Below are positions 60,614 to 63,522 of a stretch of DNA of 64,000 nucleotides, piece after piece. The stretch covers positions 224,001 through 288,000 of the IMG/VR virus record IMGVR_UViG_3300014204_013734. One strand, 5' to 3'. Each line of letters begins with the position of its first letter. Position 1 is the stretch's first letter. The stretch is from a virus. Taxonomy: Duplodnaviria > Caudoviricetes. The notes beneath the pieces were generated by a model. The model did not search any database, was not told the origin of the DNA, and worked only from the letters and a program-made list of their open reading frames with translations. The position numbers and the translations under genes are program-made.

Positions 60614-60838
60614 ATGCCGTTTTTGAAGCGACAGGACATTGACTTGGCCCTTCGGGCGAAGCACGACAAGGAATGGAAGACGAAGCTTAAGCAAGCATTG
60701 ATCAATCCGGCCTTGACCGCCGAGGAACGACGGCATATCCAGGAGCAACTGGACATGGTCGGGAAACCCAAGGTGTACAGGGCGGACACCCCGCCTAAAC
60801 TTGGGGCTATTTCTTTTACTGAGGAGAAAGAGGAATGA
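60614..60838 (+). CDS. Hypothetical protein (74 aa)
   Basis: GGGAG SD and ATGA coupling to the next gene. Confidence 0.6.
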   Translation: MPFLKRQDIDLALRAKHDKEWKTKLKQALINPALTAEERRHIQEQLDMVGKPKVYRADTPPKLGAISFTEEKEE

Positions 60839-61254
60839 AGAAGCTGGCTATGACGGTCCTGGTGGCACTGGTCTTGTTCACATCCGCTTTGGTGGTGAAT
60901 GCGGAACAGACGGCGCCAGTTCCTGCAACGGTGGCTGCCCCCGCTGCAACAACCAATGCCCCTGCGACTGATGTCGCCCCGGCAGCGGTTCCTGCTGCGG
61001 ATACTCCGGCAACCCAGGATGCTGCGGTTGCTACCCCGGCAGTTCCGGCTACCGATGCTGTGACGGCACCGGCACCTGCCGCAACGGCGGACGCTACCCC
61101 TATTAAGGTTCCTGACAATGTTGAACAGGTTGTGAAGGTTGCGGAAGCGGAAGGTGCGGGTTACGGTACTTATGGCACCATCATTGTGTTGCTTCTGGCC
61201 CTTAGCACGATTCTGTACCGGACGTTTGGCAAGAAAAAGACCCCGAAAGTGTGA
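60835..61254 (+). CDS. Exported Ala/Pro/Thr-rich protein with a C-terminal membrane anchor (139 aa)
   Basis: Signal peptide MKKLAMTVLVALVLFTSALVVNA, low-complexity linker, TM helix TIIVLLLALSTILY and basic tail GKKKTPKV. Confidence 0.75.
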   Translation: MKKLAMTVLVALVLFTSALVVNAEQTAPVPATVAAPAATTNAPATDVAPAAVPAADTPATQDAAVATPAVPATDAVTAPAPAATADATPIKVPDNVEQVVKVAEAEGAGYGTYGTIIVLLLALSTILYRTFGKKKTPKV

Positions 61255-61314: not shown

Positions 61315-61899
61315 TTATTCGTTCCTTTCCGTGATGACCACGCTTGGGCTGGCATCTTCCGCCTTCACGACACGGTTCTTTTCGTAGTCCACCTTGACGG
61401 GGTAGGGGTAAGCCGTAACCTTCCCCTCTACGTACACTGGCACAATCTTGGCCATCCCCTGATCAAGGACGACACACATGACCCACGTTGCCGAAGTCGT
61501 CTTGGACGAATACAGGCCATTTGGTTCAGGCTGCTCAACAATCCCATTTGCGTAACCTCCCGCAATGTACTGCTGGGCAATCTTGAGGGGGTTGGAAAGC
61601 TGGACATCATACGGGATGGGAAATCCAATGGACGGGCAGTCCCCTTCAATGACGCTCATGTCACCTCGCCACACGGAATGGGTAGCCACGGCTCGGTTGC
61701 GGGCTTGATAAATTTGAACGTACACCTGCCGTTCCCGGCTGTAATCAAAGAACGGAATAGGTTGCGTTTTGGCATACTGTTGCTGTTGTTTGTCCACATT
61801 CTCTGCGTCCAGCATTTCCTGCTTGGATGTTCTGTTATCCCAACAACCAGACAACAACAGAACGAACAGGATTCCAAGAATTGTCGGTACGGTTTTCAT
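61315..61899 (-). CDS. Phage lipoprotein (194 aa)
   Basis: Start reassigned to ATG 61899 (AAGGA SD). MKTVPTILGILFVLLLSG|C lipobox; PIPYDVQLSNP and EPNGLY motifs. Confidence 0.75.
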   Translation of the reverse strand: MKTVPTILGILFVLLLSGCWDNRTSKQEMLDAENVDKQQQQYAKTQPIPFFDYSRERQVYVQIYQARNRAVATHSVWRGDMSVIEGDCPSIGFPIPYDVQLSNPLKIAQQYIAGGYANGIVEQPEPNGLYSSKTTSATWVMCVVLDQGMAKIVPVYVEGKVTAYPYPVKVDYEKNRVVKAEDASPSVVITERNE

Positions 61900-61912
61900 A
61901 GGTTTCTTCCTT

Positions 61913-62275
61913 TCATCGTCCACAGACGAAACGTACGGGTTCGGGAACGGCATCGCTGGTAGTGGCAATTTGTGCCATGTTGCACATCTGGATCTTGATG
62001 GCCTGCCTTTGCAGGGTCAGGCTGTTAATCAGATTCGGATCGGTTGAACCTGCGATCCTAGATCCGAGTCCGGTCCAGTCCGAATACAAGGTGAGCATTT
62101 CCTGTGCCTTGCCTTCCGTGTACTGGAAGGAAGTCTTGGTGATGATTCGGTCCCCCCACAGGAATGCCGGTTTCGTGACCAGCAACACTGCGGACAGGAT
62201 GACGATAACCAGGATGGCCAGAAAGCCCAACCAGATGGCTTTTCCGGTGTACCACAGATCGTTTCCAATTGACAT
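61913..62275 (-). CDS. Single-pass membrane protein with a helical extracytoplasmic domain (120 aa)
   Basis: ATG 62275 after AAGGG. TM segment AIWLGFLAILVIVILSAVLLV. Confidence 0.7.
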   Translation of the reverse strand: MSIGNDLWYTGKAIWLGFLAILVIVILSAVLLVTKPAFLWGDRIITKTSFQYTEGKAQEMLTLYSDWTGLGSRIAGSTDPNLINSLTLQRQAIKIQMCNMAQIATTSDAVPEPVRFVCGR

Positions 62276-62318: not shown

Positions 62319-63413
62319 TTATTCTTCCGACATCCCCGAATCAAAGTTTTTCAGGCGTTCAGTGACCATCTCCGGTGTTATCATAACGGTCTTTGTTTCC
62401 ATTTCGGGGGCGTCAAACATCGTGTCTTGAAGCACCTCTTCCAGGAGGGCACGTAGACCCCTGGCGCCGACCTTTCGCTTGCCGGCAAATTCAGCTACTT
62501 CCAAGATTGCTTCTTGGGTGAAGTCAAGGGATACTCCTTGGATTTCCAGAATTTTCTTGTATTCCTTAACCAGGGAATCCGGCGGTTCTACGAGGATTCG
62601 GGCCAAGTCTTCGGGAGAAAGATGGTCCAGTTGGACCACTACAGGGAGACGGCCAAGGAGCTCGGCGATCATACCAGCTTCCACCAACTTGTCGTGGGTG
62701 ATCCGGCGAGCCGGTTTTCGGTTTTCCGTCACGTCAGCCCCGAATCCAAGACCCGACGCTGGGGTTTCTTCCCGGGCGTCCGTGAACGTACCAGCACATA
62801 TGAACAGGATGTTTGAGGTGTCTATTTCCACGAAGTCATGCTTGTTCCAGTGTTGTGTGACATTTACGGGCACAAAGATTTTCCGACCTTCAAGGAGCTT
62901 CAGGATGGATTGCTGAACCCCTTCCCCTCCGATGTCCCGGTTGCCTGCACCCGTGCGGGCGCCGCCCGTATTCAGTTCCAAGTACCACCGAAGGACCGCC
63001 GCGCGGTTCGGCAGGTCGTTTACATGAAACACAAACCCGATGTCCCAGGAAAGCTTCCCTTCCCATTCGGAAAGCTTCCGCCCGAAAGCGGGGATTTCGT
63101 TGTGGAGGAACCGAAGGACGGCAGTGATCCTCTGAAGTCCATCCACGAGGACGAATTCCCCTTCAAAGGACTTCATCCAACCAGTATGGTTGAACAGGAT
63201 GTCCTTGCCCGACTTCCCTCCTCGGAGGGCAAATTCAACATAGGCAACCTGTTGCGCCTCAGTCCAGACATGACCCCTTTGGAAATCAGGGTTCATCTGA
63301 AGGCCGTATGTTGAAATGTAGTCCTCAATATTGTGTTCTAAAGACCTCCAGTCAACATTGTGACTGTATGCCGCAGTCTGGGTGAACTGGGGGATTTCTG
63401 AAAATTTCTTCAT
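62319..63413 (-). CDS. Chimeric protein: DUF262 (ParB/GmrS-like) domain fused to the C-terminal half of a ClpX-like AAA+ ATPase (364 aa)
   Basis: N-part: PDFQRGHVW...LVDGLQRITA...ELNTGG. C-part: RDIGGEGVQQSILKLLEG, DTSNILFICAGTF, LGF, ELLGRLP, GARGLR. No Walker A or B. Likely start is ATG 63413 (AAGGA SD). Confidence 0.8.
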   Translation of the reverse strand: MKKFSEIPQFTQTAAYSHNVDWRSLEHNIEDYISTYGLQMNPDFQRGHVWTEAQQVAYVEFALRGGKSGKDILFNHTGWMKSFEGEFVLVDGLQRITAVLRFLHNEIPAFGRKLSEWEGKLSWDIGFVFHVNDLPNRAAVLRWYLELNTGGARTGAGNRDIGGEGVQQSILKLLEGRKIFVPVNVTQHWNKHDFVEIDTSNILFICAGTFTDAREETPASGLGFGADVTENRKPARRITHDKLVEAGMIAELLGRLPVVVQLDHLSPEDLARILVEPPDSLVKEYKKILEIQGVSLDFTQEAILEVAEFAGKRKVGARGLRALLEEVLQDTMFDAPEMETKTVMITPEMVTERLKNFDSGMSEE

Positions 63414-63522
63414 GGTGTTCCTTTCCTTCTTGTATAGACTACCGGAACGGAACTTTTTCCAAGCCGTCAATGGAAAGGTTTTGGAAAAAACCTTTAGGGG
63501 GCTTAAAGGTTTGGAGGAATCC

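Follow-up and report, generated by a model that had tools for sequence, protein, structure and literature searches.

Chimeric genes produced by in-frame deletion between adjacent genes are a general phenomenon. The chimera considered here joins parts of two such neighbours, a DUF262 gene and a clpX gene, and for each of these related systems have been described. In ClpX, the small domain packs as a rigid body on the large domain of its neighbour (PMC12383707), and docking onto ClpP is accomplished by six loops that project from the ring (PMC12383707, PMC7112951). Myxococcus xanthus possesses a form, termed ClpX3, that has neither an N-terminal domain nor an RKH motif and that is dispensable except under heat (PMC11423568), while jumbo phages are known that carry an accessory clpX of their own (Iyer et al. 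2021, PMC7824862; Lak phages; PHROG 4339). The DUF262 domain (GmrSD_N; PF03235), which has a ParB/Srx fold, is represented by GmrS, where it is characterized by QR, DG-x-QR and aromatic-x-x-x-N motifs (Machnicka et al. 2015, PMC4619093).

The stretch of phage DNA that was analysed (termed here the window) is 64,000 nucleotides long and corresponds to bases 224001-288000 of a record of 381,280 bases that is rated 72% complete; an ENA contig of 444,386 bases matches this record at 100% across the 21 kb compared. Near the end of the window, beyond several small genes and a block of giant ones (2209, 288 and 2178 aa), and on the opposite strand from these, lies an ORF with zero internal stops (Table 1) whose translation switches from DUF262 to ClpX sequence. 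This switch, first claimed in a sequence-only reading of the window, is corroborated by Pfam, by PDB matches and by the open frame itself. Pfam finds GmrSD_N/DUF262 at aa 33-106 (E 1e-7; 32.2 bits, just below the cut-off of 33.2), AAA_2 at aa 166-259 and ClpB_D2-small at aa 266-336 (all of which positions carry a +1 numbering); and 25 PDB sequences match the fusion, the top one being E. coli ClpX across aa 158-350 at ~40% identity. Against the NCBIfam ClpX models (PRK05342 / TIGR00382), the fusion scores 197 bits versus a curated cut-off of 359, whereas the intact copies of two relatives score 363 and 377; its match to one of these copies (P0004) begins at residue 151.

Table 1. The chimeric gene and its signals, with positions in the window
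Feature	Position	Strand	Remark
Promoter-like motif, two boxes, 15-base spacer	63438-63466	-	32 exact copies in genome, 0 in control
Purine-rich putative ribosome-binding site, ahead of ATG at 63413	63417-63430	-	From sequence
Chimeric ORF: DUF262 (aa 1-151) + ClpX C-terminal half (aa 152-364)	62319-63413	-	364 aa; same protein on 4 contigs
Short stand-alone-type DUF262 (GmrSD_N, ParB/Srx fold)	62961-63413	-	QR + DGLQR + Y-x-x-x-N; without C-terminal His/Glu helix
FQR motif	63264-63284	-	
DGLQR motif	63129-63143	-	
Junction Gly-Gly codons	62961-62966	-	In both parent genes at breakpoint; inferred microhomology
Orphaned second half of ClpX large AAA+ domain	62628-62960	-	Pore-2, sensor-1 strand, LGF, box VII Arg; low model confidence
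Pore-2 loop	62919-62939	-	
Sensor-1 strand	62790-62810	-	
LGF loop	62742-62750	-	
Box VII	62649-62663	-	
Complete ClpX small AAA+ domain + sensor-2	62349-62627	-	Confident model fold
Sensor-2	62451-62468	-	

The motifs named in the sequence-only reading (FQR, DGLQR, pore-2, LGF, box VII and sensor-2) are all found where it had placed them, and the Walker A and Walker B motifs, which it had reported lost, are missing, along with pore-1, not only from the ORF but from the remainder of the 381 kb as well. Two further losses that it had listed call for another description. The N-terminal C4 zinc domain is indeed absent, but not on account of the fusion: it occurs in 0 of the 119 nearest ClpX homologues, the relatives' intact copies included. 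Likewise, a pore-1 loop is absent, but in this family that loop reads GYYG rather than GYVG.

The unfused state of the locus is known from a relative (L017), in which the best homologue of the DUF262 half--a protein of 191 aa (P0122; 69% identity; on 4 contigs)--is encoded by a gene that overlaps the start of an intact 365-aa clpX by 4 bases (stop/start; L017:513-2182), an arrangement that suggests translational coupling. After this clpX come, on the other strand, orthologues of the window's 74-aa, 105-aa and 2178-aa genes, which places both arrangements at the same locus; the fallback explanation of the sequence-only reading, which saw in the ORF two separate genes brought together by a recent deletion, is thus borne out directly. 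In a second relative (L013) this locus likewise holds an intact clpX, of 367 aa (P0004), but the gene ahead of it is an unrelated one of 113 aa, so that the DUF262-clpX pairing is not conserved. Both intact genes (L013:381-1484 and L017:1085-2182) encode zinc-less phage ClpX with a GYYG pore loop. In L017 coordinates--from which, as this nearest unfused relative is 68-75% identical to the phage at the DNA level, the size and ends of the deletion have to be read--the fusion lacks 569 bases, which comprise 37 DUF262 codons and 153 ClpX codons.

The DUF262 side of the junction ends in Asn-x-Gly-Gly, and the ClpX side corresponds to Lys-Asn-Gly-Gly, right after Walker B. Because Gly-Gly occurs in both parents at these sites, the join lands on codons common to both; from the 68-75% identical relative, rather than from the true parent allele, we infer a short microhomology there. 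A join at Gly-Gly is automatically in frame, and one in three random deletions would be as well; the frame is therefore weak evidence of selection. The direct repeat ACGGG, which had been noted as flanking the junction, does exist in two copies (62965-62969 and 62950-62954), but it is not a recombination scar: the copies are Thr-Gly codons at positions inherited one from each parent; a repeated 5-mer occurs in 22% of this ORF's 30-nt windows; and a deletion between direct repeats would keep one copy, whereas both are present. No long repeat was found at the junction, and the deleted DUF262 and clpX pieces occur nowhere else in the 381-kb record. Searches for a near-identical intact copy of either gene found none (the best being 74% and 72%). 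Metagenome contigs scanned with exact 30-mers likewise gave no intact allele of near-identical sequence, though the very closest records may be missing from that set; viral-contig scans yielded no close relatives, and the neighbouring 74-aa gene, when used to scan metagenomes, recovered only L013 and L017.

Several other features of the locus were observed. Downstream of the fusion on the same strand are genes for a lipoprotein-like protein of 194 aa (61315-61902; PHROG 24725) and for a protein of 120 aa with a hydrophobic segment (61913-62275); as both are missing here in 2 of 2 relatives, the locus also gains and loses genes. On the plus strand, 60835-61254 encodes an Ala/Pro/Thr-rich protein of 139 aa that has a signal-like segment at its N terminus and a membrane anchor at its C terminus; both relatives have a shorter counterpart. 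Outside the window, ~2-3 kb upstream of the fusion, there is a pair of 114-base repeats that are 83% identical (G000:C1:289396-289509 and 290211-290324).

An identical fusion protein is called on 4 contigs (from ENA, JGI and Logan), which are at least 99.97% identical to each other, with 0-4 base differences over 4.7-21 kb and 0 in the ORF. The JGI copy has 4 base differences in 12.4 kb, all outside of the ORF, and thus represents a separate assembly; the other copies are identical. Two Logan contigs, one of 173 kb at depth 29 from a 2018 landfill run and one of 4.7 kb at depth 6 from a 2022 groundwater run of a different study, run straight through the junction, showing neither a sequence difference nor a joint. 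(This support consists of assembled contigs rather than of raw reads, and the landfill or the groundwater run may itself be the source of the DNA.) In a low-depth groundwater run (X3), a contig stops exactly at the junction and the next 2.8 kb are uncovered (L015:6969-9793); this gap could be due to chance or to a second allele and, the depth being low and patchy, with no joint or loose end, is given no weight.

Within the DUF262 half, whose family (PF03235) is present in 120 of its 120 nearest homologues, the three GmrS motifs are all kept (PMC4619093). It differs from GmrSD in belonging to a short (~170 aa), stand-alone subfamily without the GmrD nuclease--no Pfam match to a GmrD or HNH nuclease partner, fused or adjacent, was found among the neighbours--and in having lost that subfamily's C-terminal helix. 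In intact members, Asn-x-Gly-Gly is followed by a tail that conserves a His in 114 of 114 homologues, a Glu in 113 and a Val in 111, and that is modelled in the intact protein as a helix of 21 residues; in the fusion this tail is replaced by ClpX sequence, a loss that had gone unmentioned in the sequence-only reading. The model of the intact relative's DUF262 weakly resembles ParB-family NTPase domains (best E 3e-3). Elsewhere, the short subfamily occurs in tandem duplication or fused to HNH or PF01693 (P0279, P0246, P0266), which indicates that it fuses readily.

An AlphaFold2 model of the fusion, based on an alignment of 50 + 5 rows, is confident for DUF262 (pLDDT mostly above 90) and for the small domain (~90), but the values fall below 50 at aa 151-237 and at aa 254-262; such low values are no proof of disorder, inasmuch as only five ClpX rows lie behind that half, though these same five rows suffice for a confident small domain. 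The model fits ClpX structures poorly (TM ~0.25; rmsd 13-22 A), and the LGF loop is located in a low-confidence segment. The strand order of the AAA+ sheet is 5-1-4-3-2; hence the deletion has removed strand 1 from between the retained strands 4 and 5, which agrees with the low confidence of the orphaned half. Prediction of a complex between the ClpX half and intact phage ClpX gave no answer (score 0.07) and carries no weight either way.

Regarding expression, 22 of the 32 genomic copies of the promoter-like motif lie in the first 90 kb, often as divergent pairs (G000); the window has this single copy, and the structural-type block has none. Because the same motif also precedes the intact DUF262 gene in L017, it appears to be inherited, and transcription is no evidence of a new role; judging from these signals, the original promoter probably still drives transcription of the fusion.

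In a phylogenetic tree, the ClpX proteins of the three phages group together as a single clade (100/99) within a zinc-less group, apart from canonical ClpX. Since two members of this clade are intact, by parsimony an intact clpX is ancestral and the fusion derived. The closest cellular ClpX proteins are mostly from Myxococcota (genome matches to the relative's intact ClpX being 59-61%), a hint that the host of this jumbo-phage group may belong to the Myxococcota or be a related deltaproteobacterium. ClpX3 of M. xanthus DK1622 (MXAN_2743; PMC11423568) and its Myxococcota paralogues likewise have no zinc domain and no RKH loop and are not beside clpP (in this phage, no clpP and no second clpX was found in 381 kb of the 444-kb genome), a likeness that concerns features rather than an alignment with MXAN_2743; unlike the fusion, which is without Walker A, pore-1 and Walker B, those proteins are full ATPases. 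The phage also resembles other jumbo phages in having had an accessory clpX, but the one jumbo-phage copy examined (L028) is full length, has the zinc domain and groups with canonical ClpX, whereas here the parent is zinc-less and the product truncated; Lak phage ClpX matches the fusion at only 35% identity.

As to its distribution, the fusion is neither a ClpX nor an established fusion family; it is unique in the databases searched, and an ordinary mechanism accounts for it. Among the best 120 of 8000 candidates scored in a full-length search, only the protein itself spans both halves; of 422 proteins examined, a set that takes in the top 150 out of 1.84 billion representatives, none but the query combines the two halves; 38 matches to longer proteins with this DUF262 include no other AAA fusion; no GenBank phage covers 80% of the fusion; scans of viral contigs likewise gave no second fusion; and no other Walker-less ClpX match has a DUF262. 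(One Walker-less ClpX, P0023, was considered as a parallel and set aside: its contig is cellular, and a frameshift appears to have distorted the call.) Its protein cluster has one member sequence, and in the relatives DUF262 and clpX are intact and separate--most of what the sequence-only reading had itself held would weigh against a functional fusion. The chimera shares with deletion chimeras generally the co-oriented, adjacent parents, the short shared sequence at the join, the retained promoter and the restriction to one lineage; it differs in that the searches found the DUF262-ClpX pairing nowhere else.

Selection and age need to be considered together. The dN/dS comparison envisaged in that reading for the ClpX half yields, for both halves versus the relatives, dN of 0.21-0.26 and dS of 1.7-2.9, like those of neighbouring genes, and these values mostly reflect pre-fusion history; with synonymous sites near saturation and the branch mostly preceding the fusion, pairwise dN/dS was discarded as a test of selection on the chimera. 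The intact clpX genes of the two relatives are under purifying selection (dN 0.21-0.27, dS >2), and the fusion branch shows no rate increase (14 vs 14 changes), although that branch's dN/dS is dominated by pre-fusion history and the carriers show no polymorphism in the ORF. Private changes in the fusion number 0 at the 60 conserved sites of the orphaned half and 0 at the 38 of DUF262. In simulations of neutral drift, all of these sites and the open frame are kept with P 0.93 at 0.0003 substitutions/site (the spread among carriers), with P 0.08 at 0.01 and with P 0.009 at 0.02. Together these results imply that the fusion either is younger than ~0.015-0.02 substitutions/site or has been selected; a lack of private changes would be expected of a neutral gene up to ~0.01-0.02 substitutions/site, which amounts to 1-2% of the distance to the relative. 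An event as young as this would leave too little time for selection to show. Between these possibilities, the pattern of conservation favours youth: residues 152-213 are identical to the relative's full ClpX at 58 of 62 positions, versus 60 of 93 for the small domain, so that the best-kept part is one that serves a working ring, and the small domain, on which a poison would plausibly rely, is less conserved. Such a pattern is what an intact ATPase would show.

The explanation that best accounts for these observations, and to which we assign a good probability, is that the gene arose by a recent, tolerated in-frame deletion and encodes a DUF262 without its tail, followed by a middle part that folds poorly and a small domain that does fold, the whole being devoid of unfoldase activity. 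The starting point would have been a zinc-less clpX of the Myxococcota type beside the structural-gene block, with a short DUF262 gene directly upstream, as in the relative. A single deletion of ~570 bp, perhaps aided by a few bases of microhomology, would recently, in one near-clonal lineage, have taken the end of DUF262 along with the first ~150 codons of clpX--and with these Walker A, pore-1 and Walker B--and joined the rest in frame at Gly-Gly; we propose that the accessory nature of both genes made it tolerable. The product would be incapable both of ATP hydrolysis through its ClpX part and of forming a working ring, and would most likely be cleared or inert, in effect a clpX knockout that stays in frame. 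At the contig level, only the fused allele is seen across samples of different studies and years, which suggests that it is at least not strongly harmful; it could have swept. Against an accidental origin it can be said that the reading frame runs on across the join, that the promoter motif and ribosome-binding site have been preserved, and that a lack of decay would be seen under selection no less than in a young gene.

The presence of only the fused allele in separate samples, and the fact that one step removed all ATP-binding motifs, would also be expected if loss of the phage ClpX ATPase were beneficial in the current host (because the unfoldase is costly there or triggers defence), so that the deletion spread while the hybrid tail stayed idle; yet near-clonal carriers are equally well explained by one persistent phage population and two relatives keep an intact clpX under purifying selection, and we consider such a benefit unlikely. 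The sequence-only reading had instead envisaged a protein that poisons host ClpX hexamers or binds and redirects ClpP. In such a host-takeover protein, selected as such, the small domain would cap the large domain of host ClpX subunits and block ring closure, or else LGF would dock ClpP; the whole of that small domain is retained and the model folds it with confidence, it packs on a neighbour's large domain in ClpX (PMC12383707), LGF, box VII and sensor-2 are kept, the promoter motif and ribosome site are intact, and the Myxococcota affinity of the closest cellular ClpX proteins implies that a matching host paralogue probably exists. The position of the breakpoint determines which motifs remain, however, and the kept motifs, which merely lie downstream of it, are thus a by-product; LGF is in a low-confidence part, whereas ClpX docks by six ring loops (PMC12383707, PMC7112951); the small domain is the less conserved part; M. 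xanthus needs the likely host partner, a ClpX3-like paralogue, only under heat (PMC11423568); no clpP was found in 381 kb of the phage genome; and the fusion is a singleton in all searches. Positive support for poisoning or redirection did not emerge, and this function is improbable; that DUF262 would act in it as a solubility, dimer or targeting module is similarly doubtful. Nor is it probable that a gene has been caught at birth, with an expressed, ATPase-dead ClpX fragment that, by its folded small domain or its LGF loop, jams or redirects the host Clp protease being fixed in the phage population by its advantage. Finally, that an assembler joined two real genes in error, the other fallback of the sequence-only reading, is very improbable: although only contigs cover the junction and both complete carrier samples may be where this DNA came from, the same junction recurs in separate assemblies from different samples, contigs from two studies span it cleanly, no long repeat lies at it, and no copy of the deleted pieces exists elsewhere in the record.

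Interpreted as a recent, tolerated deletion, the locus provides a clean, datable case in which an in-frame deletion has disrupted an accessory phage gene and the unfused parent arrangement is known. It also serves as a warning that a striking domain fusion with seemingly 'kept' functional motifs can be a scar. Were the poisoning function true after all, the protein would be a natural ring-poisoning ClpX fragment, of which no description was found in the literature searched. A more lasting by-product of the analysis is a group of jumbo phages with a zinc-less ClpX of the Myxococcota type, which may hint at the phylum of their host.
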